A program made the translations under genes and the position numbers. A stretch of 24,000 nucleotides of DNA from Rhizobiales bacterium NRL2 (GTDB lineage: Bacteria > Pseudomonadota > Alphaproteobacteria > Minwuiales > Minwuiaceae). Each line of letters opens with the position of its first letter. Position 1 is the first letter of the stretch. Of this stretch, positions 1 through 23,791 are shown in pieces. Under the pieces are notes generated by a model, which saw nothing but the letters and a program-made list of their open reading frames with translations, was not told the origin of the DNA and did not search any database. Where the stretch lies: contig CP016093.1 in NCBI GenBank assembly GCA_001664005.1, forward strand, positions 3,377,031-3,401,030, given 5' to 3'.

Positions 1-464
1 GGGACGGTCTCGCGTTCGGGCAGCGGTTCCGCCCCGCCAAGAACCCGCTCGGGCAGGCCGTCGCACTGCGCGACGTTGAACACGGTGAAACGCTTGAGGA
101 AGGGCACCGCCTGCGGCTCGTCGCCTTCCTCCGCTGCGCGCTTCTGCTCGTCCTTGGGGATGAAGCGGTCGGCATAGACGACGGTGGTGCCGCGCTCGCC
201 CTTGCGCACATGCCCGCCCAAGGCAAGGGCTTGGCGGAAGGTCAGCCAATGCTGGGCGGGGTATCCCTTCTCGATGACCGCGCCCCACAGGATCAGGATG
301 TTGATCCCGGAATAGGCGCGCTCGGTCGCCGCGTTCCGGGGCAGCCCGATCCCGGCCTTGGCCTTGCCCCAAGGCTGGACCCAGGGCACCCGCCCGGCCT
401 CCAACTCGGCAATAATCCGGTCGGTGACCTCCTGATAGATCGTCTCCCGCTTGCGCTCCGGCAT
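1..464 (-). CDS. ardC: ArdC-family antirestriction protein, N-terminal ssDNA-binding (DUF1738-type) domain; 5' part only, gene continues past the window start
   Basis: Minus-strand translation from CAT at 462-464 reads MPERKRETIYQEVTDRIIAELEAGRVPWVQPWGKAKAGIGLPRNAATERAYSGINILILWGAVIEKGYPAQHWLTFRQALALGGHVRKGERGTTVVYADRF... GGAGG lies 6 nt upstream of the start. This matches the conserved ArdC N-domain pattern (PW..PW, GIN.L.LW, W.TF.QA...G..VRKGE.GT.VV). It is absent from the ORF track because it runs off the edge. Confidence 0.8.
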   Translation of the reverse strand, partial: MPERKRETIYQEVTDRIIAELEAGRVPWVQPWGKAKAGIGLPRNAATERAYSGINILILWGAVIEKGYPAQHWLTFRQALALGGHVRKGERGTTVVYADRFIPKDEQKRAAEEGDEPQAVPFLKRFTVFNVAQCDGLPERVLGGAEPLPERETV

Positions 465-499
465 GGCACACCTCCGCTCGCAAAAACTCGCGCGCCTTT

Positions 500-858
500 C
501 CCCGGAAGCGGGGTGGGCGGCGAGATGCGACCGGAAAGGCCCGCCAAAGGGGCGGGCCGCACCCGGAGGGCCGGAACGGAGTGGAGGACCCGGAGCGGAG
601 CGGAGGGTTGCGGCGCGCCGCGGCGGGCCTAGAAGGGAGCGCCGCCCACCCCGCGCCACCGGGAAAGGCAATAGAAAGAACTTCACCGCCCGCGAGGGCG
701 GCGGCCGTCGGGCAGCCCGCAGGGCTGCCTATCGCGCCAGGGATCGAAGCCCGAAGGGCCGAGACCGGTGAGGAGGAAACGCGATCAGTCCGGTGGACTG
801 ATCGCCCGACGAACGCGGGCTCGGTTCACGAGAGCCCGGCGGCCGGCCGCAGGCCGGG
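500..858. repeat. Array of at least eight GC-rich stem-loops or palindromes in non-coding DNA upstream of ardC
   Basis: Hand-folded structures: 500-513 CCCCG/GAAG/CGGGG; 538-558 GGCCCGCC/AAAGG/GGCGGGCC; 610-621 palindrome GCGGCGCGCCGC; 686-701 CCGCCC/GCGA/GGGCGG; 711-729 GGCAGCCC/GCA/GGGCTGCC; 781-805 perfect 11-bp stem GCGATCAGTCC/GGT/GGACTGATCGC; 816-838 CGGGCTC/9 nt/GAGCCCG; 843-857 CCGGCC/GCA/GGCCGG. ORFs called here are Arg/Pro/Gly-rich and not credible. Confidence 0.6.
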
Positions 859-1415
859 CGGGCGCCCGTCACATCCGGGACGAGGATATAAGGGAGCAGT
901 CAGCCCTCTTTTGCCGCAGCAGGAGCAGTGGCTTCCATCGAGTGCGGTGCCAGCTTACGCACACGAGTTGGAGGCCATCGGCGCCGACGACGTTGCGGCT
1001 GTCTGTCTAAACGGAATGATGGAGGCGCCTCTGCGTCAGCAGGCCCTTCCCCCATTGTGGTCGATGACTCTGCCTTGTGGCGCTGATGTTACCTCGCAGC
1101 GACGGGAAAAACGCCCGTGGGCCCGGTGGACTGCCACAGGTTGACCACACAGAGGGGGTGCGGATTCGAGTTCGCCTGGGTGCAAGACGGTTATCGCCAC
1201 GACTCGTCGCGCTGCTCCACGTAACCTGCACGCTGATCCGTCGGCAGCGCTCGGCACGATCGACGTTGCAGATACGCGGCGCGTCGATCCACGCAATCCG
1301 GCGGCGTCATGAAATCAGCTTAATCCTCCGTTAAGCACGTGGTGCTATCTGTAGGAAAATGTGCGCCTGTGCGAGCCATGGCGGATAAAACTTTCGTGAC
1401 GAAGGCCGATGCGTC

Positions 1416-1444
1416 TTGACCGGCACGATGTCGGCCCCTAGATA
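1416..1444 (+). promoter_or_regulatory. Putative sigma70-type promoter of the cop operon with an internal dyad
   Basis: TTGACC (1416-1421), a 17-nt spacer, then TAGATA (1439-1444), about 65 nt upstream of the ATG at 1510. The spacer contains the near-dyad CCGGCA-cga-TGTCGG. Pattern match only. Confidence 0.3.
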
Positions 1445-1509
1445 GGCAACGCCTTGGTGTGCTGCGAGTGAGTCGCCGTTTGTTGGCTGTTACGGTATTG
1501 CAAAATAGA

Positions 1510-1851
1510 ATGTGGCGTTTGCTGACAGCACTCTTAGTCGTTGTAGGGCTTTTATTGGCCCAGAGTCCTGCCCATGCCTCGCCGCATCATGCGATGCCGG
1601 CTTCCGTCACCACCACGGATACTCTGGGCGCGCCAGCGCCAGCGCCACCGAGCGACCATTCCCACGGCGAGCACGCCGGCTCCGGTCATTGTATTACCCC
1701 GTCGTGTGGGCCCTCGTTTGCAGGGCCTGGAAGCTCTTTCGCCCTGATTCACTCAAACCGCTATGAGCGGTTTCGGCCCGCTGGCGCCGATAGAGATCTG
1801 CGCTCCGTCGCCTTGGACCGCGATCCTCCCGTCCCCCGATCCACCGTCTGA
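1510..1851 (+). CDS. Small secreted His/Cys-containing protein, first gene of the cop operon (possibly CopL/DUF2946-like, uncertain)
   Basis: In-frame ATG at 1510 inside ORF 1459-1851 gives MWRLLTALLVVVGLLLAQSPAHA|SPHH..., a signal-peptide-like N-terminus. Potential metal ligands follow (SDHSHGEHAGSGHCITPSCGP). It sits directly upstream of copA. Its codon usage is less GC3-biased than the neighbouring genes. Confidence 0.5.
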   Translation: MWRLLTALLVVVGLLLAQSPAHASPHHAMPASVTTTDTLGAPAPAPPSDHSHGEHAGSGHCITPSCGPSFAGPGSSFALIHSNRYERFRPAGADRDLRSVALDRDPPVPRSTV

Positions 1852-2057
1852 TCCCGTTTCTGTCGACGCGGCCACGCCGCGTGCCATGACGCACGTCGTG
1901 ATGCGGCGCTAGCGAGGCCGCAAGGCATCCGGCCGCGGCTGGACAGAAGCCTCTTTTGAAACCTCACGGCCGTAAGGCCGGCTGGAACAGACACGTATCT
2001 TCCGTTGCGCAGACCGTGGGCATGAGCCCGAGGGCAGCAGGACGGGGAGCGGAGAGG

Positions 2058-4040
2058 ATGAAAATGCGCCTCAAAGGCATTCTGGTGTCAACGCTGGCAG
2101 CGTTGGCCGTCGCGGGCCCGGCGCTCGCCGGCGAGTACGACCTCGTCATCGAGGAAAAGACCGTCAACGTCACCGGCCGGGAGCGGCCGGCCATGACCGT
2201 CAACGGATCGATCCCCGGCCCCGTCCTGCGCATGCGCGAGGGCGAGGAGGTGACGATCCGGGTCACCAACCGGCTCTCCGAGCTCACGTCCATCCACTGG
2301 CACGGGATACTTCTCCCGGCGAACATGGACGGCGTGCCCATCCTGAGCTTCGACGGGATCGCGCCCGGCGAGACCTTCACCTACCGCTTCCCCGTCAAGC
2401 AGAGCGGCACATACTGGTACCACAGCCATTCCGGCTTGCAGGAGCAGTCGGGCGTCTACGGCCCGCTCGTGATCGATCCCGCGGAGCCGGCGCCGTACCG
2501 CTACGACCGCGAATACGTGGTCATGCTCTCGGACTGGACGGACGAGGACCCGCACCGGGTGCTCTCCAACCTCAAGAAGCAGAGCGACTACTACAATTGG
2601 AACAAGCGCACAGTCTTCGACTTCTTCCGCGACGTCGGGGACAAGGGCTGGGACGTCACGGTCCGCGACCGCCTCGACTGGGGTGCGATGCGGATGGACC
2701 CGACCGACATCGCGGACGTGAGCGGCTACACCTTCCTCGTCAACGGCCAGCCGCCGGCCGCCAACTGGACGGCGCTGTTCAAGCCGGGCGAACGGGTGCG
2801 GTTGCGCTTCATCAACGGCTCGGCGATGAGCTTCTTCGACGTGCGCATTCCTGGGCTGCGCATGCAGGTCGTCCAGGCCGACGGCCAGGACGTGGCACCG
2901 GTGACGGTTGACAAGTTCCGCATCGCCGTCGCCGAGACCTACGACGTGATCGTCGAGCCCAAGAAACACCGCGCCTACACGGTCTTCGCCGAGAGCATCG
3001 ACCGCAGCGGTTACGCCCGCGCCACACTGGCACCGCGCGAGGGCATGGCGGCCGAGATCCCGACGATGCGGCCGCGCCAGATCCTCACGATGGCCGACAT
3101 GGGAGCGGCGCACGGCGGCATGAGCGGCATGCAGCACGACATGCCGGCCCAGGACCAGCAGCCGGGCGGCGCCCACGGTGCGGGGCACGAACCGCCAGGT
3201 GCGATGCCGGCGATGGACCACGGCAGCATGGGCGGCATGCAGCATAAGCCCGGCACGCAGAAGACGTGGCCCGCAGGCGACACTGCCTCGGACCAGCCCC
3301 AGGGCTCGACGGCGCCGCACAGCGCCGCCGGCGCCGGAGACCACAGCGGCATGACCATGCCGATGCAGCACGGCGCCATGCAGGAAGCACCGGCGGGCGG
3401 CGGCGCCACAGCGATGGGCCATTCGGCGATGGGCCATGGGTCGGCCGGGCAACCGGCCGCACAGCCGATGGAGCAAGAAGGCCACGGCATAGCCACTGCC
3501 GCGGGCCGGAGTGGCCCGGAACATGTCGGGCATCAAATGCCCCCCAGGGGCGAAACCGCGCCGGCCGGCGCAGCCCACGGCGGGATGGCGATGGATGACG
3601 GCTCGCCAAAGATTCTCAGCTACGCCGACCTCCGGGCCGTCGTGCCCAATTACGATACGCGACCGCCGGAACGGGAGATCCTGGTCCGCCTCACCGGCAA
3701 CATGGAGCGGTACTTCTGGTCGATCAACGACAAGAAGTTCTCCAAAGCGGAGCCGATCAAGCTCCGCCACGGCGAGCGCGTGCGCATCAAGTTCGTCAAC
3801 GAGACCATGATGAACCATCCCATGCATCTGCACGGCATGTGGATGGAGATCGAGAACGGCAACGGTGCCAATAACCCCCGCAAGCACACCGTTAACGTGC
3901 CGCCAGGGCAGACGGTCTACGCCGACGTGACGGCGGACGCTTTGGGCCAGTGGGCGTTCCACTGCCACCTGCTCTACCACATGGACACCGGCATGTTCCG
4001 GACCGTGGTTGTCGCCAACGTCGTCGCGCAAGCCGAGTGA
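2058..4040 (+). CDS. copA: Copper-resistance multicopper oxidase (CopA/PcoA type)
   Basis: ORF 1956-4040 trimmed to ATG 2058 (GGAGCGGAGAGG upstream). N-terminus MKMRLKGILVSTLAALAVAGPALA. Four MCO copper motifs are visible: IHWHG, WYHSHSG, HPMHLHG and HCHLLYHMDTGM. There is a long Met/His-rich insert. Confidence 0.93.
   Translation: MKMRLKGILVSTLAALAVAGPALAGEYDLVIEEKTVNVTGRERPAMTVNGSIPGPVLRMREGEEVTIRVTNRLSELTSIHWHGILLPANMDGVPILSFDGIAPGETFTYRFPVKQSGTYWYHSHSGLQEQSGVYGPLVIDPAEPAPYRYDREYVVMLSDWTDEDPHRVLSNLKKQSDYYNWNKRTVFDFFRDVGDKGWDVTVRDRLDWGAMRMDPTDIADVSGYTFLVNGQPPAANWTALFKPGERVRLRFINGSAMSFFDVRIPGLRMQVVQADGQDVAPVTVDKFRIAVAETYDVIVEPKKHRAYTVFAESIDRSGYARATLAPREGMAAEIPTMRPRQILTMADMGAAHGGMSGMQHDMPAQDQQPGGAHGAGHEPPGAMPAMDHGSMGGMQHKPGTQKTWPAGDTASDQPQGSTAPHSAAGAGDHSGMTMPMQHGAMQEAPAGGGATAMGHSAMGHGSAGQPAAQPMEQEGHGIATAAGRSGPEHVGHQMPPRGETAPAGAAHGGMAMDDGSPKILSYADLRAVVPNYDTRPPEREILVRLTGNMERYFWSINDKKFSKAEPIKLRHGERVRIKFVNETMMNHPMHLHGMWMEIENGNGANNPRKHTVNVPPGQTVYADVTADALGQWAFHCHLLYHMDTGMFRTVVVANVVAQAE
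3090..3600 (+). other. Met/His-rich low-complexity insert within CopA (repeated M-x-x-M-Q-H and HG/MG motifs)
   Basis: Translation reads MADMGAAHGGMSGMQHDMP...HGSMGGMQHKPG...HSGMTMPMQHGAMQ...AMGHSAMGHGS...HGGMAMDD. The MxxMQH unit occurs three times, alongside many Met, His and Gly residues. Confidence 0.85.
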
Positions 4041-4055
4041 GTGGGGTGGGAGACG

Positions 4056-4787
4056 ATGATCAAGAACGGCATATGGCACCGGCCGCTGCTCGCTGTGGCA
4101 GCGGCCACGCTCCTGCTCACGGGCGCCCAGATGGCGCAGGCCCAGGTCGCCGACGAAGAGGTCTTCACGTTCCTGCAGGTGGAGCGGTTCGAGTACCGAG
4201 CGACAGACGGCAAGGATCTCTTGAACTGGGAGGCCCAGGGCTGGGCCGGGACCGACACCAACAAGGCTTGGCTCAAGACCGAGGGCGAGAAGCTTGTTGG
4301 CGGCAAGGTGGAAGACGCCGAGGTGCAGCTCCTCTACAGCCGGATGATCGCCCCGTTCTGGGACCTGCAGGTCGGCGCGCGTTATGACATCCGGCCGGAC
4401 CCATCGCGCGGCTTCGCCGTCTTCGGCGTCCAGGGCTTTGCACCCTACTTCTTCGAGGTGGACGCCGCGGGCTTCGTCAGCGAGGACGGCGACGTCTCGG
4501 CCCGGATCGAGGCGGAGTACGAGCTCCTGCTCACACAACGGCTCATCTTGCAGCCGTCGGCCGAACTCAACTTCGCCGTCCAGGAGGTCGAGCGGCTCGG
4601 CATCGGGCGCGGCCTCAGCGATGTCGAGCTGGGGCTGAGGCTTCGTTACGAGATCGTCCGGGAGTTCGCGCCTTATGTCGGCGTCTCCTGGGAACGCAAG
4701 GTCGGACGGACGGCCGACTTTGCCCGACGAGAGGGCGAGGACGTCGACAGCCTCGCGCTCGTCGCCGGTGTCCGGTTCTGGTTCTGA
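4056..4787 (+). CDS. copB: Copper resistance protein B (outer-membrane CopB/PcoB family)
   Basis: ATG 4056 (GGGAG upstream) within ORF 4041-4787. Signal peptide MIKNGIWHRPLLAVAAATLLLTGAQMAQA. CopB-like beta-barrel sequence ending ...LVAGVRFWF. It starts 16 nt after the copA stop. Confidence 0.9.
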   Translation: MIKNGIWHRPLLAVAAATLLLTGAQMAQAQVADEEVFTFLQVERFEYRATDGKDLLNWEAQGWAGTDTNKAWLKTEGEKLVGGKVEDAEVQLLYSRMIAPFWDLQVGARYDIRPDPSRGFAVFGVQGFAPYFFEVDAAGFVSEDGDVSARIEAEYELLLTQRLILQPSAELNFAVQEVERLGIGRGLSDVELGLRLRYEIVREFAPYVGVSWERKVGRTADFARREGEDVDSLALVAGVRFWF

Positions 4788-4832
4788 GCCGCAGACATCG
4801 GTCTGACCACCACTGAAGCATAGGAGGTAACA

Positions 4833-5282
4833 ATGCGCGCATTACGCACGCTCACCGGAACTCTGCTCGCGATGGCCGTGGCGGGCGGGATCGCCACGGC
4901 TAACGCGGCAGAAGCCACAATCGAAATGCTCAACAAGGGCGAGGACGGCCGCTTCGTCTATTCGCCGCAGCTCGTCCGCATCAAGCCGGGCGAGACCGTC
5001 ACCTTCGTCGCGACCGACAAGGGACACGACGCTGTGTCGATCGCCGGCATGCTGCCCGGCGGCGCACAGCCGCTCAAGGTCCCGTTCAACAAGGACGGAT
5101 CCTTCACCCTGACGGAACCCGGCGTCTACGGGATCCGGTGCACGCCACACGTCGGTCTGGGGATGGTGACCGTGATTGTCGTAGGCGAGCCGACGAATCT
5201 CGAGGCCGCCGAGGCCGCCGCCAGCAAGCTTCCCCCGAAGGCGAGAGAGCGCATGCAGGCGCTCCTCTCGCAAGTCTCGTGA
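4833..5282 (+). CDS. Pseudoazurin (type-1 blue copper protein)
   Basis: Signal peptide MRALRTLTGTLLAMAVAGGIATANA. Cupredoxin sequence MLNKGEDGRFVYSPQLVRIKPGETVTF with type-1 site C-T-P-H-x-x-x-G-M (RCTPHVGLGM). RBS AGGAGG lies upstream. Confidence 0.85.
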   Translation: MRALRTLTGTLLAMAVAGGIATANAAEATIEMLNKGEDGRFVYSPQLVRIKPGETVTFVATDKGHDAVSIAGMLPGGAQPLKVPFNKDGSFTLTEPGVYGIRCTPHVGLGMVTVIVVGEPTNLEAAEAAASKLPPKARERMQALLSQVS

Positions 5283-5312
5283 GTGCAACTCAACCTACAG
5301 GAGTGTAAGCCT

Positions 5313-5912
5313 ATGAAACTCACAAGCTTTGTATCTATGCGTCACATGCTCGTCGCATCCGCCGCCGTCCTGGCGCTGGGCATCGCCGGTGCGCAGGCCG
5401 GCCCGTCCGGCCATGGCGGAGACCACCACGGTAGTGGTCACGCCACGAGCTTTGGCAAGCCGGGCGACCCGGCCAAGGTCGACCGGACAATAGAGGTGGT
5501 GGCCAAAGGTCTGGACTACGGCATCGACAAGCTCCAGTTCCGGGCCGGCGAAACGGTCCGCTTCGTCGTCACCAACGAGAGCGAGCTCGTCCACGACTTC
5601 ACCATCGGCGATGCCGCGACGCAGAAGGCCCATCGCGAAGAGATGATGAAGATGATGGACCAAGGCGGTATGGCGAGCGGAGAAATGAAGCACGACGACA
5701 CGAACGCCGTGTTCCTTCGGCCCGGCGAGACCAAGGAGCTGGTCTGGACTTTCACTGAATCCGGCACGCTCGAGTACGCCTGCAACGTCCCCGGGCACTA
5801 TGAGGCCGGCATGAAGGGGCCAATTGTCGTGGCCGACTCCGGTGCATCATCATCTTCGGCGTCTGAGGGTCACGACCCAGGACACGATACGGGGGCCATG
5901 CATAAGAACTAG
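5313..5912 (+). CDS. Periplasmic cupredoxin with His/Met-rich segments (CopI-like copper-tolerance protein)
   Basis: ATG 5313 (AGGAG upstream) within ORF 5283-5912. Signal peptide, then GHGGDHHGSGH. Plastocyanin-like fold with HDF...YACNVPGHYEAGM ligands. Internal EEMMKMMDQGGMASGEMKHDD and a C-terminal His-rich tail. Confidence 0.75.
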   Translation: MKLTSFVSMRHMLVASAAVLALGIAGAQAGPSGHGGDHHGSGHATSFGKPGDPAKVDRTIEVVAKGLDYGIDKLQFRAGETVRFVVTNESELVHDFTIGDAATQKAHREEMMKMMDQGGMASGEMKHDDTNAVFLRPGETKELVWTFTESGTLEYACNVPGHYEAGMKGPIVVADSGASSSSASEGHDPGHDTGAMHKN

Positions 5913-5930
5913 GCGCGGGAAGTAGGACGG

Positions 5931-5957
5931 CGTGGCGAGCCGATGGGGCTCGCCACG
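5931..5957 (+). terminator. Stem-loop immediately after the cop operon (likely intrinsic terminator)
   Basis: Perfect 11-bp stem CGTGGCGAGCC (5931-5941) / GGCTCGCCACG (5947-5957) with loop GATGG, 19 nt after the stop at 5910-5912. No clear T-tract follows. Confidence 0.45.
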
Positions 5958-6133
5958 TCTACCGTTCATACCGCTCGGCCAACCGCTATCGTTTGGGTTC
6001 AAATCGTGCTGCACGAGAGATACGCGGGCAGCCGCGAAGAGCCCAAGGGCGGCGCACGCATGCTTCGTGCCGGCTGGTTTCGCCTACTCTGGGATTGTCG
6101 AGAGCGTCGGCCTTGTAGAGGGCGATAAGGACA

Positions 6134-6409
6134 TTAATCACCGTCTCGATTTCTCGGGCGTCCTTCATTCGAGAGAGTGTTGCCGGTGTCGCCGGCAGGA
6201 GAAGACCTGCGGAGGAGATCCGCCGCCTCCATCCCAAGACCTTGGGCGAGTCTCTCGACTACCTCGATGCTGGCGGCATAGACGCTGCGCTCAATGGCGC
6301 TGATGTAGGTGCGGTCGATATCTGCGCGGTGAGCCAATTCTTCCTGCGACAGGCCTTGGGCCTGCCGGCATTTTCGCAAGTTGAGCGCGAGCACCTCTCG
6401 TATCTCCAT
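6134..6409 (-). CDS. qseC: XRE-family helix-turn-helix regulator, QseC-like by position
   Basis: MEIREVLALNLRKCRQAQGLSQEELAHRADIDRTYISAIERSVYAASIEVVERLAQGLGMEAADLL is a canonical HTH_XRE domain. It is divergent from the QseM-like gene, as qseC/qseM are in ICEMlSymR7A. The symbol is assigned from synteny only. Confidence 0.75.
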   Translation of the reverse strand: MEIREVLALNLRKCRQAQGLSQEELAHRADIDRTYISAIERSVYAASIEVVERLAQGLGMEAADLLRRSSPAGDTGNTLSNEGRPRNRDGD

Positions 6410-6427
6410 GGACGAGAGAGCAGCGGC

Positions 6428-6462
6428 TTGTCGAGTATTTCACCACGGAGTATTTTCGACAA
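6428..6462. promoter_or_regulatory. Candidate operator in the divergent qseC/qseM-like intergenic region
   Basis: A 7-bp inverted repeat TTGTCGA (6428-6434) / TCGACAA (6456-6462) encloses two direct GAGTATTT copies (6433-6440 and 6448-6455). Confidence 0.3.
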
Positions 6463-6538
6463 TCGATGGCAGCGAAGGTGGTGTGCTTTAAGACTACCGA
6501 ATAGCCGGTAACGGACACGGCATAGGGAATAGCTCGTA

Positions 6539-6805
6539 ATGGCGAAGGAAGAGCAGAAACCCGAAGTTGCCGACCACGTCCCCTGGGTGGAGCGGATCAC
6601 GCCCTACGACGAGGCGCATTTTGTCACCTACCTCCGGCTGCTGGACGCCGAAGCGGACGGGGCCGAGTGGAAGGAGGTCGCCCGGCTGGTGCTCGGACGG
6701 GAGCCCGACACGGATGCCGCCGCCCGGCACTGTTGGGAAGACCACCTTGCGCGGGCGCATTGGATGACACGATCCGGCTACAGGCAACTGCTCAAGGACG
6801 CCTGA
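6539..6805 (+). CDS. qseM: 88-aa stand-alone DUF2285-like protein, QseM-like antiactivator candidate
   Basis: Its size and position (between the XRE gene and the FseA-like gene, convergent with the latter) match qseM. Its sequence YLRLLDAEADGAEWKEVARLVLG...DHLARAHWMTRSGYRQLL parallels the C-terminus of the neighbouring activator (LQALDGWLDGAPYRDIAIALFG...DHVRRAVRRGRALMRGGYRKFLL). Confidence 0.65.
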   Translation: MAKEEQKPEVADHVPWVERITPYDEAHFVTYLRLLDAEADGAEWKEVARLVLGREPDTDAAARHCWEDHLARAHWMTRSGYRQLLKDA

Positions 6806-6813
6806 GCGGCGTG

Positions 6814-7633
6814 TCAGAGGAGAAACTTGCGGTATCCACCGCGCATGAGCGCCCGTCCGCGGCGGACGGCGCGGCGGACATGGTCGCGCAAGTGGTCGCG
6901 CGGATCGCGCCAGTCGGCCTCGACGCGCGCCTCGCCGAAGAGCGCGATGGCGATGTCACGATAGGGCGCGCCGTCGAGCCATCCGTCGAGCGCCTGCAGC
7001 ACCACGCGGAGCCGCCGCCCGTGCGGCTCGATCATCCGATGGTCTGGAAATCGGCCGCGCCCCATAATGTTGGCGAGGCCTTCGAGCGCAACGAGACGGG
7101 CTCGGAGATGCGCGGCCGGAAGAACGGCATCGGTCAGCAGGCGCACCGGCTCGGACAGGCTTGTGCCGCGGATGTCGAGTTGAAGCGCGCAGCCGGCTTC
7201 CGAAAAGAGAAGGTGCTGTCGCCCATCAGGCATCCGGAGGAGCGCCGCCCGGCATGGGGTTTCCGACAAGCTGAAGCGGCCGGTATCGCCCCGTGCACCG
7301 GCGGGAAGCGCGCGGGTTGGCAGAACGTGCGGACACGCGCGCGAATCCCAGAAGACAACGGCCTCGGTCGCTGTCCGCTGGGGCGCATCGGCGAAAAAAC
7401 AGGCACCAGTCGGCCAGCTCGGGCAGCTCCGTCCGCGCCGTCATGATTGTCAGGTTCGGCGCGGGCCGCTCGATCGTGACGGCAGGCGAGGCCTCGGACC
7501 AGGCCTGCCGGTAGTCTGCGTCGCGGCGCAGGAACTCCCACGCCCACCCCCGCCGCGGCAAGGCGGCGGTGTAGTCGTAGGCCGCGCATCGGCGCCAGTC
7601 CCCACCGGGGCTGATGTTCGGCGGCTTGACCAT
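6814..7633 (-). CDS. fseA: FseA-like transcriptional activator (DUF6499 N-domain plus DUF2285 C-domain) encoded in two overlapping frames; the conceptual product requires a +1 shift
   Basis: ORF 7633-7226 reads MVKPPNISPGGDWRRCAAYDYTAALPRRGWAWEFLRRDADYRQAW.... ORF 7269-6814 reads ...RMPDGRQHLLF...LDGWLDGAPYRDIAIALFG...GGYRKFLL. The second frame is offset by +1. Joining 7633-7394 to 7392-6814 gives a continuous 272-aa protein. Confidence 0.75.
7391..7402 (-). other. Candidate +1 recoding or slippage site CUG UUU UUU C|GCC
   Basis: This is the only homopolymer (T6 on the minus strand, 7399-7394) inside the window where both frames are open (7229-7440). Skipping C7393 yields ...ADWCLFF-ADAPQRTATEAVVFWDSRACPHVL.... 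Staying in frame yields Arg/Cys-rich RRCAPADSDRGRCLLGFARVSARS.... Confidence 0.5.
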
Positions 7634-7742
7634 GCCGGCAGGCTTCCGCGTCGAGCGCGGGAGAAGACCGCCACCTGCCCCCGATATCCCCCGTTGTCTG
7701 CAGTCTCCTCCCCAGTGCCTGATTCCGAGCGCCGGGCCGAGC

Positions 7743-8375
7743 TCACGCGGCGGCGGACGCGACCGGCGCCCAGAGCACCGGGTCCGTGAGGTCGCCGCGC
7801 CGTCGCACGTTGGCGAGGCTGGCCGGGGAGACCTCGAGATAGCCGGCGACCGATCGCGTGCCGGCGAACGACCGTGGCGCCGCGATGCGCCGCAGGGGCC
7901 AGCCTGCCCGCCTCAGGATCCGTTCCATGGCGACGTCGGTGACGGTGACGATGTCGGAGAGGCCGCGGGACAGCCCGAACTCGATCATGCCCGCGAAGAG
8001 CTCGAAGGTCGCCCGGGCGACGCCATGCGCGCCTTCAGGGCCGTCGCGTTCGACGTCGAGCGCGAAGCGGCTGCTCTCCCACACGGCCGGGTCCGACGGC
8101 GCCGGCGCCCCGGCCAGCAGCGCGGCGAAGGTCTCCGTCAGCATGGTCGGGCCAATCGTCGGCAACAGCCGCACGCAGCCCTGGACGCGGCCGCCGGCGC
8201 CACGCTGCAGGAGATAGACGGGGTGGAGCGCGTCGAAGGTGTCGATCTCCATGTCGCCGCTGACCTCGACGTCCCAGTCGAGCCGCTGCTTGAAGACGCG
8301 GTAACGTAGGCGGTACATCTCGGCGAGATCATCGGCGAACGCGCCGTACCGGTCGGACGTGATGAGTTGCATCAT
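7743..8375 (-). CDS. traI: Acyl-homoserine-lactone synthase (LuxI/TraI family)
   Basis: ORF 7743-8450 trimmed to ATG 8375 (AGGAGG 5 nt upstream). MMQLITSDRYGAFADDLAEMYRLRYRVFKQRLDWDV...LLPTIGPTML...ESSRFALD shows typical LuxI-family motifs. Length 210 aa. Confidence 0.9.
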   Translation of the reverse strand: MMQLITSDRYGAFADDLAEMYRLRYRVFKQRLDWDVEVSGDMEIDTFDALHPVYLLQRGAGGRVQGCVRLLPTIGPTMLTETFAALLAGAPAPSDPAVWESSRFALDVERDGPEGAHGVARATFELFAGMIEFGLSRGLSDIVTVTDVAMERILRRAGWPLRRIAAPRSFAGTRSVAGYLEVSPASLANVRRRGDLTDPVLWAPVASAAA

Positions 8376-8434
8376 GATCGCCTCCTGCGAAGGGGAACTT
8401 TCGCGCATTGGAGGCGAACAGCTGGCGCGAGACA

Positions 8435-8454
8435 CCCTGTGCACTTGCACGGGG
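8435..8454 (-). promoter_or_regulatory. 20-bp lux/tra-type box upstream of traI
   Basis: CCCTGTGCACTTGCACGGGG is symmetric at 8 of 10 dyad positions and has the CTG-N10-C(A/G)G layout of lux-type boxes. Its centre is about 69 bp upstream of the traI ATG and it begins 18 bp past the traR stop. Confidence 0.5.
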
Positions 8455-8471
8455 TGACGAGGTGCCCCCGC

Positions 8472-9197
8472 TCAGTGCAACGTCGGCTTGGATGCGGACA
8501 GGCGTGCCACGGCCTGGCAGACCGTGCGGACGTTGAGCTTCATTTTCGCGTTGTCGAGGTGGAACGCCACCGTGCGGCGGGAGATCCCGAGGATGCGGCC
8601 GATTTCCCAGGCGGACTTGCCCTGGGCCGCCCACTCCAGGCACTCGAACTCGCGCGGCGACAGCGCGGCGCCGTCGACGACGCGGTCGGCGGCAAGCTTG
8701 CGGCGGGCATGGGCGTGGAAATACAGCGCCATGAGCTGCAGGGCCGTGGCGTGCGCCTCGACGCTGCGGCGGAACGCCGGATGACGCTCGTCGGCGGCGA
8801 AGGTCACGGCGGCGACCGGCCCACGCCCGTCGTGGATCGGAATGGTGAAGCCGCAGCGGATGCCGAAGGCGGCCGCCTCGTCGAAGAACTGCTGTTGCCG
8901 CTTGGTGAGCTCAGACTGCCCGGCGCCGGGCCCCCATTCGAAGGGGTCGGCACCGCGCGTCGCCTGGAGGATGACCGGGTCGACGCGCTCGTAGTGGCTT
9001 TCGACGTAGTGGCCGATCCAGGCGGCCGGATAGGTGGAGACCACCAGCGCCTCCGCCCCACGCCGGTGGGGCATGGACAGATAGGCGAAGCAGGTGAGGT
9101 CGAGCGCGGCCGCCGCGTCGGCCATGGCCTTGTGCAGGTCGTCGAGGTCGACGCTTTCCGCGAGGCGGTCGATGAAGGTCTGAAAGATGCGATGCAT
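8472..9197 (-). CDS. traR: LuxR-family AHL-responsive transcriptional regulator (TraR-like)
   Basis: ORF 8472-9419 trimmed to ATG 9197 (GGAAGGAAG upstream). The N-terminal autoinducer-binding domain (DLTCFAYLSM...YPAAWIGHYVESHYERVDPV) is followed by the C-terminal LuxR HTH (LSPREFECLEWAAQGKSAWEIGRILGISRRTVAFHLDNAKMKL). Length 241 aa. Confidence 0.9.
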   Translation of the reverse strand: MHRIFQTFIDRLAESVDLDDLHKAMADAAAALDLTCFAYLSMPHRRGAEALVVSTYPAAWIGHYVESHYERVDPVILQATRGADPFEWGPGAGQSELTKRQQQFFDEAAAFGIRCGFTIPIHDGRGPVAAVTFAADERHPAFRRSVEAHATALQLMALYFHAHARRKLAADRVVDGAALSPREFECLEWAAQGKSAWEIGRILGISRRTVAFHLDNAKMKLNVRTVCQAVARLSASKPTLH

Positions 9198-9458
9198 CCG
9201 TCTTCCTTCCGATCGACGCGAATGGGGCCTTCCATTTCGGATCGTCTTGCCGTCGCCTGCCCAGGGCCCATACGCGAAATCCGTTGCAGGAATTCTATCG
9301 CTGGTGCGCTCGACGAAACAAGCAACGAACCAAAACTTGTGAGGACTGTTATTGGCCATACGCCTCGGAAACAACGGCCGATCTTCGGTTTCCTGCCCTC
9401 CTCCGGACGATGTCGGCATCGTCGGCCACCGTCGCCGGCGGTCACCGTGATCGTCGCT

Positions 9459-10379
9459 TCACGTCACGACGCCAGGGGGTCCCCCTTCCGACCATTGCCG
9501 GTCAAACGGCTGCCCTTGGCGGAGCGCTTCCATGAGCGGCGTGAGGAATTCCCTGATGGAGCCGACCACATCGGGGAGCGCCGGTGGCGGAAGAGCCGGG
9601 CGTCCCCAGCGTTGGAATGCCTGCCACTGCTGCTGCTTGCCCCGGTCGCTCGCGAACTCGTCGCTCAGCCCCACCGGGGTGACCTCGGGCAGCGCGGTGC
9701 CGCGCCGGTCGAAGGTGACGCGGACCGCCGGGGCGAGCGTCTGTCCATCGAACGGGAAGGACGACGCCAGCACCCAGAGATCGTAGTAGTCCTTCATCCG
9801 GCTGTTCAGCATGCCGAGCGGGACGATCGCCTCGTACTTTTCGGCGACTACCGTCTCCCGTGGATAGGCGCGGATGCGCGGGGCGGGAAGCGCGAGAAGC
9901 GACGGGGACTCGATCTCCTCGGCCTTCGGCGTCACGGCGTCGCCGAAACCGATGTTGACCTGAACCGACAGGCGGGCACTGGCGAGCTGTGCCTCGAGGC
10001 GCACGCGGGCGCCGGGGTGCCCTTCCTCGTCCCGCATCGGCTCGACCTGGACGGACTCGGTGATGAACTCAAGGCCGTCGTCTTCCTCCACGGGCGTATC
10101 GCAGAGCGCCCGGAAGGTCGTGGTCAGCGCCTCGATGTTCCGTTCGCCGAAGCCGAGAAGGTCGAGGTCGCGCGTGGCGCGATACGGTTCACCGGCCCAG
10201 AGGATGAAGAGCAGGGCGCCTTTCAGGATGAAGCGGTCCCGATGACCAGACGTCCCGAGGCGATAGAGAAGCCGTTCCAGGGCGTAGCGGATGAAGACGA
10301 GATCGACGTCCTCGCCGCGCTCGCGGGCGCGGTTGGTGAGACGCTGGCGAACGGACGCCGAGAGGTGGCTCGGCTTGTC
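9459..10379 (-). pseudogene. AbiEii/AbiGii-family nucleotidyltransferase toxin gene, 5'-truncated (no start codon, no AbiEi partner)
   Basis: The frame upstream of ORF 9459-10091 stays open to 10379 and reads SDKPSHLSASVRQRLTNRARERGEDVDLVFIRYALERLLYRLGTSGHRDRFILKGALLFILWAGEPYRATRDLDLLGF.... This is the typical AbiEii N-terminus with the NTase motif. Upstream of it the frame meets a TAG inside the IS end, with no ATG, GTG or TTG in between. Confidence 0.75.
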
Positions 10380-10580
10380 TGAACAGTTTCGGGGCTGTCG
10401 CTAAGTGGATGTCCGCCTTGGTTATGCTGCGGCCGGGATTGGCTGCTGCGTCGTGAGATATGCCTGATCGGGGGCCTGCCCGCCAAGCGATGATTGAGGT
10501 CTCCGGCCGTTGTAGAACGCCAGGTACCGGCTGATCGAGGCGCGGGCCTCCGGTACGTTGGCATAGGCGCGCAGTTGGCG
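10380..10580 (-). mobile_element. IS3-family (IS407-group-like) remnant: terminal inverted repeat plus the last ~50 codons of the transposase
   Basis: The minus strand encodes ...LRAYANVPEARASISRYLAFYNGRRPQSSLGGQAPDQAYLTTQQPIPAAA* (stop at 10422-10424), the conserved C-terminal end of IS3-family OrfB. The outer end TGAACAGTTTCGGGGCTGTCGCTAAGTGG starts with TG at 10380. Similarity is lost upstream of about 10580. No second end was found in the window. Confidence 0.6.
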
Positions 10581-10629
10581 TCGAACGCCGCCTTGCCTGC
10601 TCTTGCGAGGGGCAGAGCCTCGGAACGGT

Positions 10630-10782
10630 GACGTCAGTCGTCGTGTCGCGCGACAATGGTGCGATGGCTTTCCATCCGACAAAGACAGCACCGGCAGCGA
10701 CCACGGTGATGACAAAAATGGCGGCCGGACTTGAACGGCGCTGCAGGTCCGTGGCTGAGCGCTTATACTTCTTTTGGTTCAT
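10630..10782 (-). pseudogene. 5' fragment of an HlyD/EmrA-type membrane-fusion protein gene
   Basis: ATG at 10782 gives MNQKKYKRSATDLQRRSSPAAIFVITVVAAGAVFVGWKAIAPLSRDTTTDVTV.... This is a basic N-terminus, one TM helix and an sTDDAyV-like motif, after which the sequence degenerates. Weak. Confidence 0.3.
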
Positions 10783-10884
10783 GTCTAATCTCTTCCGATG
10801 CGTTGGCATCCAGTCGAGAGTCGTGCGGGCGCCGTCGACAACCGGTCATTCCGACTGGTCTATGGAGCCGATAATGAATTCGGC

Positions 10885-12972: not shown

Positions 12973-15333
12973 CTAGATCTTGACCGAACGCAGCCGGAGA
13001 GCGTTGCCGACTACCGATACGGACGACAGACTCATCGCCGCGGCCGCGAATATCGGTGAGATCAAAATCCCGAAGTACGGGAAGAGGATCCCCGCCGCCA
13101 CCGGCACGCCCGCGGCGTTGTAGACCAAGGCGAAAAACAGGTTTTGCTTGATGTTGCGCATCGTCGCACGAGAGAGCTTCCTGGCCCGGACGATGCCGTT
13201 GAGATCGCCTTTGACCAGGGTAAAACCCGCGCTCTCGATCGCCACGTCGGCGCCGGTGCCCATGGCGATGCCGACATCGGCCTGGGCCAGTGCAGGTGCG
13301 TCGTTGACGCCATCGCCCGCCATCGCGACCTTTCGGCCTTCGTCTTGCAGCTCCTTGATGATGTGCGCCTTGTCTTCGGGCAACACGTCGGCACGGATCT
13401 CGTCGATCCCGAGTTTTCCAGCCACCGCCTTCGCGGTACGCTCGTTGTCGCCAGTCGCCATGACGATGCGGAAGCCTTGTTCGTGCAGCGCCTTCAGCGC
13501 GTCCGGCGTCGTCTCCTTGACCGGATCGGCGACCGACACGAGACCGGCGATTTCGGACCCGACGATGACGAACATCACCGTTTCGCCTTCGTCACGTCGA
13601 GCATTGGCGGTCTCGGAGAGCTTGCCGCCGTCGAGCCCCAGATCGGCGAGAAGCTTTGCGTTGCCGAGCGCCACTGATTTGCCGTCGACGATGCCTTTTA
13701 CCCCTTTGCCGGTGACGGCTTCGAATTCATTCGCGTTAGCCAGCGCAACATCGCGTTCTTCGGCCCCGGTGACGATGGCTTCGGCGAGTGGGTGCTCCGA
13801 GCCCCGCTCCAGGCTTGCGGCCAAGCGCAGCACGTCGTCCTCCTCATGCCCGGGTTGCGGCAAGACGGCGACGAGCTTCGGCTTGCCGACGGTCAGCGTC
13901 CCCGTCTTGTCGACGATCAGCGTGTCGACCTTGGCGAAGCGTTCCAGCGCCTCGGCGTTCTTGATCAGCACGCCGGCTTGTGCGCCTCGGCCCGTTGCCG
14001 TCATGATCGACATCGGCGTTGCCAGGCCCAGCGCGCACGGACAGGCGATGATCAAAACGGCGACTGCCGAGACCAGTCCATATGAGAGTGCCGGGGCAGG
14101 CCCCCAAAGAGACCATGCGATGAATGAGAGAATTGCAATGACGATCACGGCTGGTACGAACTTGCCCGCCACAGAGTCGGCAAGTTTCTGGATCGGGGCA
14201 CGGCTGCGCTGCGCGTTCGCGACCATCTCGACGATCTGGCTCAGCATGGTGTCGGAGCCGACGCGTTCGGCTTCGATCACGAGACTGCCCGTGCCGTTGA
14301 TTGTGGCGCCGGTTACCTTGTCGCCCTCGACTTTCTCGACCGGAACCGGTTCGCCGGAGATCATCGATTCATCGATCGACGAACGTCCCTCGACCACCAC
14401 GCCGTCGACGGGCACCTTGTCGCCCGGGCGGACGCGCAGCCGATCGCCGACCTCGACGTCCTCGAGCGGGATTTCCTCCTCGCTCCCGTCCTTGCGGATC
14501 ACCCGGGCGGTCTTGGCGGCCATATCCAAAAGGGCGCGAATCGCCGAGCCCGTTCGCTCGCGCGCGCCGAGCTCCATCACCTGGCCGAGCAGCACCAGCA
14601 CGACGATCACCGCGCCGGCTTCAAAATAGACCCCGACATGGCCCTCCGCATCGCGGAATCCGTCCGGGAAAATCTCCGGCACGAGCACGGCGACGACACT
14701 GAAGAGATAGGCCGCGCCGACGCCCATCCCGATGAGCGTGAACATGTTGAGACTGCGGTTGATCACCGACTTGACGCCACGCACGAAGAATGGCCAACCG
14801 GCCCAGAGAATGACCGGTGTCCCCAAAGCGAGTTCGATCCACAGCGTTACACGCTCGCCGAAGATGTCGCGGACGAAACCGAGCCCAACAAAGGGGCCCA
14901 TCGTCAGCACAAGAAGCGGAACCGTCAGCACGGCGCCGATCCAAAACCGGCGCTTGAAATCGACAAGCTCGGGATTCGGTCCGTCATCGGGGGCTGGAAC
15001 CCCCATAGGCTCCAGCGCCATGCCGCAGATCGGACATTCTCCCGGTTCGTCCCGCACGATCTCGGGATGCATCGGGCAGGTATATTTCGTGCCCTTAGGC
15101 GCTGTTTCGGCCTTGTGCTCGCCGGCGAGATAATGCTCCGGGTCGGCCGCGAACTTATCGTGGCACTTTTGAGAACAAAAGTGATAGGTCTCACCCTCGT
15201 ACTCTCGGCTCGGCTTGTCCTGATCCACCTGCACCGTCATTCCGCAAACCGGATCTCTGGCCGTCATAGCCTTGACCGAAGCTGTTGCACCGTCAGAGCG
15301 ATGGCTGTGATCGTGATCATCGTGCTTGTTCAT
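12973..15333 (-). CDS. Cu(I)/Ag(I)-translocating P1B-type ATPase with a His-rich, YHS and CPxCG N-terminus
   Basis: CPC motif ([13 protein letters not shown]), DKTGTLT phosphorylation site, GDGVNDAP, and YN ([12 protein letters not shown]) plus MxxSS ([10 protein letters not shown]) transmembrane signatures of Cu(I) pumps. The N-terminus reads HDDHDHSH, then DPVCGMTV...[12 protein letters not shown], then [22 protein letters not shown]. Confidence 0.95.
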
Positions 15334-16173: not shown

Positions 16174-16389
16174 CTACGTATCCTTACCGGCCGATGGCTG
16201 CGAGAAATAGGCCAGTGAGGAGGAGTATCGTTCCGGCGCTGTGAGAAAGAGCTTGTGACAGCCCTCCGAGCAGAAAAAATACGCCCAGCCCTCACACTCC
16301 TCCTGGGCGACGGCCTTTTCGGGCGTCAGGCGCATGCCGCATACTGGGTCGGTTACCATTACGTCTTTTTCGGGTTCGAAGCCGGCCAT
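16174..16389 (-). CDS. YHS (TRASH-type) domain protein, 71 aa
   Basis: DPVCGMRLTPEKAVAQEECEGWAYFFCSEGCHKLFLTAPERY is the canonical YHS pattern (DPVCGM...Y.FCS..C...F...P..Y). Its start overlaps the fabI stop (TGATG). Confidence 0.85.
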   Translation of the reverse strand: MAGFEPEKDVMVTDPVCGMRLTPEKAVAQEECEGWAYFFCSEGCHKLFLTAPERYSSSLAYFSQPSAGKDT

Positions 16390-17171
16390 CAGTGAAACAC
16401 CATCCCTTCGATGTGAAAGCCCGCGTCGACGTAGAGCGTTTCCCCGGTGATGGCGCTCGTATAATCGCTCGCCAGCATAAGCGCCGTACGTCCCACCTCG
16501 CAGGCGTCCACCGTGCGCCGCAGCGGCGCCTTGCGGACGGTCTCATTCAATAGTTCGTCGAAATGCTCGATGCCCGAGGCCGCACGTGTCGCGACCGCCC
16601 CGGCCGAAATCGCGTTCACCCGGATCGCCTTGCCACCGTGTTCATGGGCCAGGTAGCGTACAGACGCTTCAAGGGCGGCCTTCACTGGCCCCATGACATT
16701 GTAATGATCGACCACTTTTTCTGCGCCGTAGTAGCTGAGCGTCGTCAAGCTGCCACCTTTGTCCATGAGCGGCTCGGCGAGCTTCGCCATACGGATGAAG
16801 GAGTGGCACGAGATAAGCATCGATTCAGCGAAGCCTTCTCCCGAACAATCGGTCAACCGGCCATGGAGATCTTCCTTACGGGCCCATGCGATCGCATGAA
16901 ACAGAAAATCCAATCGGCCCCATTTCTGCTCGATCTCCCCGAAGACGGCCTCCAATTGTCCCGGCTCGGCGACATTGCAGGGCAGGAAAAGTTGCGCGTC
17001 CACCTGTTGCGAAAGCGGCTCAACAAAGGGCTTGGCCTTGTCGTTCAGATAGGTGATGGCAAGATCGGCGCCGGCGTTCCCAAAATGCTGGGCCGCCGAC
17101 CAGGCCAAACTGTGTTCGTTGGCAATTCCCACCACCAACCCCTTCCGGCCTTTCATATCGATGAGTTCCAT
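16389..17171 (-). CDS. fabI: Enoyl-[acyl-carrier-protein] reductase (NADH), FabI family
   Basis: ORF 16389-17231 trimmed to ATG 17171 (AAAGGAG upstream). MELIDMKGRKGLVVGIANEHSLAW.... The Tyr-x6-Lys catalytic pair lies in HYNVMGPVKAALE. IRVNAISAGAVATRAASGI and ITGETLYVDAGFHI are also present. Confidence 0.9.
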   Translation of the reverse strand: MELIDMKGRKGLVVGIANEHSLAWSAAQHFGNAGADLAITYLNDKAKPFVEPLSQQVDAQLFLPCNVAEPGQLEAVFGEIEQKWGRLDFLFHAIAWARKEDLHGRLTDCSGEGFAESMLISCHSFIRMAKLAEPLMDKGGSLTTLSYYGAEKVVDHYNVMGPVKAALEASVRYLAHEHGGKAIRVNAISAGAVATRAASGIEHFDELLNETVRKAPLRRTVDACEVGRTALMLASDYTSAITGETLYVDAGFHIEGMVFH

Positions 17172-17282
17172 TTTTGCGCTTGCTCCTTTCTCCGGCCAGG
17201 CGGGCCAGGCGCGATCCGTCTCGCCGCGCACGATATTATTCGGGACCAGACATAGCTGCGGACGACAGGGTCACAGCCTGGG

Positions 17283-19067: not shown

Positions 19068-19070
19068 GGT

Positions 19071-23104: not shown

Positions 23105-23439
23105 GGCCGGCCTCCCCGGCCACTGTGCGCGGCAAAGAAATTGTAAAGCGGCGCGAAGACCAGTGCTACATACCAGCCATAGGCGAAGCTCTCGGCCAGG
23201 CCGAGGAAAAAGCTCTGCCAGCTCAGCCAAGTGAAGCCAGGAAGGAGCCGGAACCAGCTTTGATACATCGCCTGGCCGGGAAACAAAAGGTCGAAGCCGA
23301 CGCAAAGAGCGAAGGTGACGGCCAGGAAGAGGCCTAGGCTCAAGCCGAGCGCCATCACGGGTATTCTTGAAGCAGACTGAACCGGCAGGGGCGTCCCCGC
23401 GCGCGGCGGCGTCCTCGAAGAGATATTGAGATCAGACAT
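23101..23439 (-). CDS. Small two-TM membrane protein (resembles DUF5676-type proteins of metal-resistance loci; name from memory)
   Basis: ATG 23439 (GGAGG upstream) within ORF 23101-23718. MSDLNISS...IPVMALGLSLGLFLAVTFALCVGFDLLFPGQAMYQSWFRLLPGFTWLSWQSFFLGLAESFAYGWYVALVFAPLYNFF. It overlaps the upstream stop by 8 nt. Confidence 0.65.
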   Translation of the reverse strand: MSDLNISSRTPPRAGTPLPVQSASRIPVMALGLSLGLFLAVTFALCVGFDLLFPGQAMYQSWFRLLPGFTWLSWQSFFLGLAESFAYGWYVALVFAPLYNFFAAHSGRGGRP

Positions 23440-23791
23440 GGCGGTCCTCCAACTGGGGCGTCGGCGTCTCGGTCTTGGCACCGGGTCCGACATATTGCTC
23501 GGGCGCAGCCTCAAAGCGCTCCCGGCATTCCCGCGAGCAAAAATAATAAACATTGCCGTCATGGACGCTCGGCTTGGCCTTGTCGGTACTGACGGTCTTG
23601 CCGCAGACGGGATCGACGTCCTTGGTTGGGGGAATCCACCGCAACTCCTCGGCATTCTTTTGCCGGCTGTGGTTCGCATCGCCGTGCTTGGCCTTGCCGT
23701 GCCCATGTCCCATGACATGGGCGCCGCAGCCGAAGCGCATCATCACGAAGATGATCACCGCCCAGATCAGGAAGTAGAAAAGCGCGTTCAT
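23432..23791 (-). CDS. Membrane-anchored YHS-domain protein with a His-rich linker
   Basis: N-terminal TM MNALFYFLIWAVIIFVMMRFGCGAHVMGHGHGKAKHGD (DUF2933-like motif), then DPVCGKTVSTDKAKPSVHDGNVYYFCSRECRERFEAAPEQY (YHS). Confidence 0.8.
   Translation of the reverse strand: MNALFYFLIWAVIIFVMMRFGCGAHVMGHGHGKAKHGDANHSRQKNAEELRWIPPTKDVDPVCGKTVSTDKAKPSVHDGNVYYFCSRECRERFEAAPEQYVGPGAKTETPTPQLEDRHV

Follow-up and report, generated by a model that had tools for sequence, protein, structure and literature searches.

A split fseA gene of Rhizobiales bacterium NRL2, probably read by +1 ribosomal frameshifting at a conserved UUU-CGC site

Two open reading frames probably constitute one fseA gene

We analysed a stretch of 24,000 nucleotides (nt) of Rhizobiales bacterium NRL2 (GenBank assembly GCA_001664005.1, contig CP016093.1, positions 3,377,031 to 3,401,030), hereafter called the window, in which two minus-strand open reading frames (ORFs) probably constitute one gene, fseA. 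This gene would encode a DUF6499-DUF2285 activator of excision and transfer of the type known from the conjugative element ICEMlSymR7A of Mesorhizobium, and it would be read by way of a +1 ribosomal shift. On the basis of comparisons with homologues and of analogy with the R7A system, we put the probability of this reading at roughly 85%. Directly observed in the present study were the anatomy of the gene, its homology, where the slip site lies and how well it is conserved, and the stability of the run of six T residues (T6) at this site across assemblies.

The 0-frame ORF (7633-7226) contains the motif GWAWEFLRRD and matches the family PF20109 (formerly DUF6499; E 6.5e-11), while the second ORF (7269-6814, 151 amino acids (aa)) matches PF10074 (DUF2285, now RovC_DNA-bd; E 2.9e-22), both above the curated Pfam cut-offs. 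Any fusion of the two frames is confined to positions 7440-7229, because the open stretch of the +1 frame begins at 7440 and the 0 frame meets its stop at 7228-7226. Across the proposed junction the minus strand reads GAC UGG UGC CUG UUU UUU CGC CGA, and no in-frame UUU_Y codon exists in the whole zone other than the two within the T6 run. The second of these, at 7396-7394, is codon 80 counted from the ATG at 7633, and reading on from GCC at 7392-7390 adds 192 codons to give a protein of 272 aa. This fusion matches both families (PF20109 with E 2.6e-11, and PF10074 with E 5.5e-22 over residues 175-271). Judged from sequence, the joined-frame match is far beyond chance, with both halves above the Pfam thresholds and the fusion homologous over its full length to a characterised protein.

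The alignment of the fusion with contiguous DUF6499-DUF2285 proteins of 51-55% identity is free of gaps across the junction. For example, ...LADWCLFF-ADAPQRTATEAVVFW of the window is found opposite ...LTRWGCSF-ADAPEHDAATATAFW of the contiguous homologue P0002. With R7A FseA the fusion shares 48% identity over 264 aa (BLASTP, E 2e-60), and this alignment passes through LFF|ADAP. The R7A query was a reconstruction from a locus of Mesorhizobium loti CJ3sym (L043), which we take to be the carrier of the R7A island. Its sequence UGG GGG CUC CUG UUU CGC agrees with the published UUUC and UGGGGG, and this match supports the assignment. The residues named in earlier work on FseA (PMC10359603) are all kept: W32, E33, F34, R36 and R37 have the same numbering, with AWEFLRR at residues 31-37 in both proteins, and the Asp of LQALDG is D216 in the window fusion and D210 in R7A FseA.

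The AlphaFold2 model of the fusion, which was built on an alignment, has a mean predicted local distance difference test score (pLDDT) of 90.4 and a predicted template modelling (pTM) score of 0.87. In this model a beta strand at residues 78-81 is composed of residues from both frames, and pLDDT values are 92-93 in the blocks for residues 71-100. For each block of ten residues other than the first, the values lie between 82 and 96. The sole significant fold match in the Protein Data Bank (PDB) as judged with Foldseek was RovC (6xz5; E 2.7e-8, target-normalised template modelling (TM) score 0.66), which is also the relative named in the literature, and a three-domain RovC-related fold, in which helix alpha-2 of DUF6499 would pack against DUF2285, is thus predicted. 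The DUF2285 domain of the fusion is basic, with an isoelectric point (pI) of 11.2. Between 7440 and 7269 the +1 frame contains no ATG, GTG or TTG, though conserved residues sit there; L104, A108 and the block VFW..CP.VLP are conserved +1-frame positions upstream of the first possible start. A separately started C-terminal protein would therefore miss conserved and structured sequence. An example of a tryptic peptide that spans the predicted junction is TELPELADWCLFFADAPQR.

The continuation of the 0 frame past the slip site has a different character. It is basic (pI 11.6; 11 K/R versus 3 D/E) and not conserved, and in a sister lineage with 92-96% identity a stop falls within it, which leaves an ORF of 116 aa. 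Among proteins sharing at least 90% identity with the 135-aa product of the 0-frame ORF are versions of 112 aa and 82 aa (P0122-P0130 and P0123), the 82-aa version being from Tepidicaulis sp. LMO-SS28. If these represent the same ORF, the 0-frame stop shifts freely past the slip site, which would be consistent with an unselected tail.

These findings bear out an original prediction that had been made from the letters of the window. It had assigned the two halves of an activator to the two minus-strand ORFs, with a +1 offset, a fusion zone at 7229-7440, a T run at 7399-7394 followed by C7393, and a product of 272 aa, and all of these coordinates proved to be correct. The proposed junction ...DWCLFF|ADAPQ is the one found in the alignments described above. 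Likewise, the proposed FseA-like identity is supported by the match to R7A FseA and by a slip codon in register with the R7A UUUC site, and the 0-frame continuation, which had been suspected to be non-coding, is not conserved.

Comparison of split sites

We compared 77 loci from species-representative genomes, 10 contigs with the window element or a sister of it, and 3 contigs with contiguous close relatives. The frame offset could be classified in the 73 loci in which both motifs were placed. The DUF2285 frame was +1 relative to the DUF6499 frame in 56 of these, 0 in 14 and +2 in 3; ten of the 56 +1-split loci are copies of the window element or its sister lineage. The script located the slip site in 52 of the 56 +1 loci, which correspond to 24 distinct 21-mers. 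UUU-CGC was present in 23 of these 24 sites and UUU-UGC in one (L012), and all were in the register W-x-x-x-UUU-CGC. A further locus outside this set (L007) reads UUG UUU CGU, and of all split loci only L012 and L007 depart from UUU-CGC. Genes split at this codon were seen in Mesorhizobium, Amorphus, Enhydrobacter, Reyranella and others.

The length of the T run varied among the 24 distinct sites (T3 in 11, T5 in 7 and T6 in 6), and the 0-frame tail past the slip site ranged from 1 to 117 codons across the split loci. In L014, a +1-frame UGA directly precedes the slip site (G UGA UCU UUC GCC), and in L042 a 0-frame UGA follows immediately after CGC (UUU CGC UGA). Because these stops bracket the slip site, the shift is pinned to UUU_CGC, a stretch of about two codons. 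As far as the sequences tell, the conserved signal is thus an in-frame UUU followed by CGC (UUU_C) and not T6. The original prediction had placed the shift at the T6 run; the position was right, but T6 is not the conserved feature.

A junction at the Trp codon was also considered. The +1 frame of the window also reads ...TGACFFADAP, and a shift directly behind UGG would give W-ACFF for W-CLFF, which is a closer fit to the contiguous homologue P0003. Judged from the window sequence by itself, any junction from UGG up to the U run would yield a plausible product. This junction is ruled out by the +1-frame UGA between the Trp codon and UUU in L012 and L014, and by the 0-frame UGA after CGC in L042. 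In the window, the slip could occur at either UUU of the U6 run, as re-pairing would be perfect and the product identical in both cases.

Several loci depart from the general pattern. The variant site of L012 (near 2377-2484) reads AUU UUU UGC C and has its +1-frame UGA directly upstream. In the three +2 loci, L053, L067 and L071, the LQALDG motif is out of frame with WEFLRR by +2 (equivalent to -1); these copies may have decayed, or a different indel may be present in them.

The hexamers upstream of the 24 distinct split sites were UGGGGG (6), UGGGGC (6), UGGAGC (5) and UGGUGC (2), and UGGAAU and UGGGAC also occurred. The Shine-Dalgarno-like UGGGGG, for which a role in stalling ribosomes at the R7A site has been proposed, is thus variable among split loci. 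UGGGGC was found as well in homologues that are contiguous and do not depend on a shift, and the G-rich UGGGGG-type motif may mostly reflect the Trp-Gly residues. In the window, the GGUG within 7403-7408 could pair with CACC of the 16S rRNA 3' end, and a stimulatory role of this element is putative.

Among 4709 FseA homologues curated across proteobacteria, about 61% need a conserved +1 shift and are mis-annotated as a matter of routine, and about 39% are contiguous (PMC10359603). The contiguous homologues P0002, P0003 and P0006 have the length and domains of the fusion, with 51-55% identity, but need no frameshift. The three closest contiguous homologues are L088 (348-1157), L089 (4001-4870) and L090 (795-1601), which have retained an out-of-frame UUUCGC or UUCGC (UUUUUCGC or CUCUUUCGCUGA). 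Compared with their split relatives they lack a single base within the G run that follows UGG or close to it, while the T run is not affected. This suggests conversion from the split to the fused form through indels in the G run; that this run was misread in sequencing is equally possible, as each of the three is a single metagenomic contig.

Proposed mechanism

FseA of Mesorhizobium japonicum/loti R7A is produced from msi172-msi171 through +1 programmed ribosomal frameshifting (Ramsay et al. 2015). In R7A the slippery site is UUUC, on which tRNA-Phe moves from UUU to UUC, with an estimated frameshift efficiency of 4-13% (PMC4755241). The residues WGL next to this site are encoded with UGGGGG (PMC10359603). 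The unfused msi172-msi171 pair activated the target promoter to 0.8% of the level reached with fused fseA (PMC4755241).

From the R7A work we infer for the window gene a shift that would be ribosomal in nature, of low efficiency and regulatory in role. The majority of ribosomes would follow the 0 frame through UUU UUU CGC to the stop at 7228-7226 and produce the 135-aa DUF6499-only protein with its junk tail. In a minority event, the tRNA-Phe on the P-site UUU at 7396-7394 would re-pair as UUC at 7395-7393. The 0-frame A-site codon CGC at 7393-7391 would then be bypassed, GCC at 7392-7390 would become the first +1 codon, and the 272-aa activator ...DWCLFF-ADAPQ... would result. Because the DNA-binding DUF2285 domain is present only in the fused protein, the slip would attenuate activator output. 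Its place would be downstream of quorum sensing by TraR/TraI and next to the control exerted by the antiactivator QseM, and transfer would thereby be kept rare. Binding of the fusion to FseA boxes (inverted hexamers 15-16 bp apart) and activation of the rdfS promoter are predicted from the family.

A rather unlikely variation is that the site has been re-tuned in the marine lineage, with tandem Phe codons (U6) replacing a single UUU and with loss of the G5 element (UGGUGC), so that the slip would take place at either UUU or would be partly transcriptional. If this were true, basal synthesis of the activator would be different and possibly higher, and the transfer frequency of the copper-resistance element would differ from that of the R7A symbiosis island.

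Alternative explanations

The same protein could in principle arise by transcriptional slippage, in which RNA polymerase would make U5 from the A6 template, so that a subpopulation of contiguous mRNA would be translated with no ribosomal shift. A deletion of one U from the six-long U run would give exactly the same 272-aa protein, and T5 and T6 runs recur among the distinct split sites. A run of six is, however, short relative to the runs usual for productive transcriptional slippage. Moreover, the T3 sites, among them the studied R7A site, carry only UUU, which is too short for polymerase slippage, and it is the codon context that is conserved and not the run length. R7A FseA has also been classed as ribosomal +1 frameshifting in reviews (PMC4755241, PMC5009743). 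Because nearly half of the distinct sites carry only UUU, transcriptional slippage cannot be the mechanism of the family. As the explanation for the window gene it is improbable, and it is at most a possible minor contributor. The split homologues with only T3 share the architecture of the window gene, and the slippage alternative that accompanied the original prediction has thereby lost ground.

Even less probable is that the two ORFs are expressed as separate, unfused proteins, one with DUF6499 and one with DUF2285, the latter started at TTG 7269 or ATG 7233. Annotation pipelines do call products of 135 aa and 139 aa. The two domains are also predicted to interact, and the free DUF2285 protein QseM binds DUF6499 (PMC10359603). 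However, about 41-53 conserved +1-frame residues (ADAP...VFW..CPHVLP..A...) precede any possible start, and these residues lie in the confidently modelled beta domain, the first strand of which comes from the 0 frame. In addition, DUF6499 has never been found bona fide without an attached DUF2285 (PMC10359603). The residual activity of the unfused msi172-msi171 pair mentioned above likewise argues against two separate proteins.

The stability of the T6 run was assessed in independent sequences. Six independent assemblies, made from samples of JGI, NCBI and ENA and 99.94-100% identical to window positions 6000-9500, all have T6. Together with the same surrounding codons, it was also present in four Logan contigs of 92-96% nucleotide identity, to whose lineage Thalassospira sp. 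MIT1370 belongs. The 0-frame product of 135 aa, which attests T6 because the 0 frame must pass through T6 to give it, was found in identical form on at least 26 contigs and is indexed in 48 assembly-collection blocks; the sources were NCBI, JGI/IMG, ENA, Logan, UniRef, nr, Tara and MetaClust. In metagenome-assembled genomes of Parvibaculum sp., this product is named hypothetical or 'transcriptional regulator domain-containing'. No contiguous protein with more than 55% identity to the fusion was found among 5.8 billion protein clusters, and no assembled T5 allele of the window lineage was found. Over the 166 nt past the slip site, the window and the sister lineage differ at 18 positions. The changed codons are 6 synonymous and 8 nonsynonymous in the +1 frame, as compared to 1 and 11, plus a gained stop, in the 0 frame. 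This comparison favours selection on the +1 frame only past the slip site, in what is a small sample.

An assembly error and a pseudogene are both unlikely, because T6 is shared by independent assemblies and the sister lineage and no contiguous allele was found. The split and contiguous forms are a single homopolymer base apart and homopolymers are error-prone under some sequencing chemistries, but the least probable of all explanations is an assembly error of one base in the homopolymer, an insertion that inactivated the gene recently or a phase-variable T5/T6 tract, given the uniformity of T6 in a lineage diverged by 4-8%, a +1 frame that is open and conserved over 192 codons, and an identical split codon across several genera. 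The error and phase-variation alternatives of the original prediction are weakened accordingly.

It should be noted that several observations weigh against +1 ribosomal frameshifting as the preferred reading of the window gene. Frameshifting at this site is a prediction from sequence, whereas R7A FseA has been studied experimentally. Loss of one U from U6 during transcription would give the same protein, and protein-level data alone cannot separate the two routes. The window has UGGUGC where R7A has the G-rich UGGGGG, and CGC is no obviously slow codon in a genome with 63% G+C. There was no sign of a stimulatory RNA structure 3' of the site: the single-sequence fold was no better than those of shuffled sequences (z 0.44), and the consensus fold over 11 relatives (alifold, -2.6 kcal/mol) gave no support for such a structure. 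The contrast between synonymous and nonsynonymous changes is made up of 18 differences only. Lastly, the target promoter (rdfS with an FseA box) is not in the window, and the downstream function is assigned by homology only.

The regulatory module and neighbouring genes

The features of the window are listed in Table 1. The arrangement of traR and traI, the msi172-msi171 equivalents, qseM and qseC is as in ICEMlSymR7A and its relatives (PMC4755241, PMC8627217), and the traR-traI order upstream of fseA on the same strand was found in all ten related contigs. The 88-aa qseM product is acidic (pI 5.26) and matches the nuclear magnetic resonance structure of QseM (PDB 7uqt; E 5.7e-19). Gene callers place the start of traI at 8408 or 8375. 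The longest ORF for the LuxR regulator (8472-9419, minus strand) comprises 315 aa, while six other assemblies start this gene at 9197; the 74 codons by which the longer ORF extends are probably untranslated.

Table 1. Features of the window, with candidate functions as assigned from sequence
Feature	Position	Strand	Remarks
0-frame ORF, msi172 equivalent	7226-7633	-	ATG start, 135 aa; DUF6499 plus 55-aa non-conserved basic tail after the slip site
fseA codons 1-80 (0-frame part entering the predicted full-length FseA)	7394-7633	-	Holds A31-W-E-F-L-R-R-D38
Candidate frameshift site UUU UUU CGC	7391-7399	-	Placed by sequence and by register with all 24 distinct split sites
fseA +1-frame part	6814-7392	-	192 codons plus stop at 6816-6814; middle beta domain and DUF2285 extended-turn helix-turn-helix (HTH)
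Zone open in both frames	7229-7440	-	212 nt; 1560-1772 in the reverse-complemented slice
UGG UGC (Trp-Cys)	7403-7408	-	Same position as the Shine-Dalgarno-like UGGGGG (Trp-Gly) of R7A
qseM homologue, antiactivator	6539-6805	+	88 aa, DUF2285 only, PF10074 E 1.8e-10; convergent with fseA
qseC-like XRE-family HTH regulator	6134-6409	-	HTH_3 E 3.7e-15; divergent from qseM
traI-type acyl-homoserine-lactone synthase	7743-8450	-	Autoind_synth E 1.6e-49; directly upstream of fseA
traR-type LuxR regulator	8472-9197	-	241 aa; Autoind_bind E 1.8e-31, GerE E 2.4e-18
AbiEii-type nucleotidyltransferase toxin	9459-10091	-	E 1.1e-31; just upstream of traR
Multicopper oxidase	1956-4040		
CopB	4041-4787		
Two cupredoxins	4833-5282, 5283-5912		
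P-type ATPase with YHS and HMBD domains	12973-15333	-	
Small YHS protein	23432-23791	-	

Searches for regulatory signals around these genes gave little. No inverted repeat was found in 7620-7760 or in the qseC-qseM and traI-fseA intergenic regions, and only two short palindromes were found in 9150-9480; this search made no explicit use of the tra-box consensus. Nor did 6000-9600 yield a sigma-70-like promoter. No Rfam families or tRNA genes were found in the 24-kb window, hence there is no clue to an integration site, and no rdfS or conjugation backbone gene was identified among its larger ORFs, which are cargo-like.

The called length of the AbiEii gene varies among assemblies (192, 210 and 277 aa). 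It is adjoined by a 206-aa ORF without a Pfam match (10189-10809, minus strand), which could be its antitoxin partner. A co-directional metabolic block on the minus strand (16389-23305) encodes an enoyl-acyl-carrier-protein-reductase-like short-chain dehydrogenase/reductase, the polyhydroxyalkanoate synthase PhaC, a phosphotransacetylase-like protein, acetate kinase and a DUF3141 protein. In a contig of the Thalassospira lineage (L084, 5592-8513), genes for ArdC, DUF2958 and ParB-like proteins come next after qseC; they look like the usual backbone of conjugative elements, whereas the window has copper genes there (1-6100). This suggests a point of cargo insertion or replacement beside qseC.

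Relation to known systems

The window gene resembles fseA of ICEMlSymR7A in the order of DUF6499 and DUF2285, in the +1 split at the homologous codon, where UUU and then CGC follow four codons after the conserved Trp, in the non-conserved 0-frame tail, and in its neighbours, with traI upstream, a convergent qseM and a divergent qseC. It differs in the slippery stretch, which is UUU UUU C (T6) in the window and CUG UUU C in R7A, and in the upstream element, which is UGGUGC (Trp-Cys) as compared to UGGGGG (Trp-Gly). The 0-frame tail comprises 55 aa in the window and 6 aa in R7A. Furthermore, traR, traI and fseA form one co-directional block in the window, unlike in R7A. The host of the window element is a marine, Parvibaculum-like bacterium according to the naming of records, with copper-resistance cargo nearby, whereas the R7A element carries symbiosis genes.

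RovC of Yersinia (PDB 6xz5), a DUF2285 activator of type VI secretion, has the same overall fold as the model of the fusion. There is weak sequence similarity in the C-terminal HTH (E 0.0013), but the identity is only 18%, the regulon is different and no frameshift has been reported for RovC.

At the +1 site of Escherichia coli prfB, which encodes release factor 2 (RF2), CUU UGA C, the P-site tRNA moves forward by one base and re-pairs on a NUU_N codon. The proposed FseA shift shares with prfB this forward re-pairing of the P-site tRNA and, at many FseA sites, the presence upstream of a G-rich element that resembles a Shine-Dalgarno sequence (PMC5009743, together with general knowledge). The two differ in that the A-site codon is a stop in prfB and the sense codon CGC in the window, in that the G-rich element is spaced by 6-7 nt in FseA sites and by 3 nt in prfB, and in the purpose of the shift, which is attenuation of an activator for FseA and autoregulation for prfB.

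Implications

The window gene is a further case of the known class of FseA +1 frameshifts and involves no new mechanism; to a specialist it is ordinary and unsurprising. The comparison of split loci amounts to an independent confirmation, drawn purely from sequences, of the published site, in that UUU-CGC is kept while the length of the T run is free. Public records label the two ORFs 'hypothetical protein' and 'DUF2285 domain-containing protein' and so hide what would be the master switch of a mobile element. This element, which carries copper resistance, recurs on many contigs, among them contigs of JGI, ENA and Logan assemblies and a record that comes from Tara. Together, fseA, qseM, qseC, traR and traI mark the region as a regulatory module of an R7A-type conjugative element, which predicts that its transfer would be gated by quorum sensing and rare.

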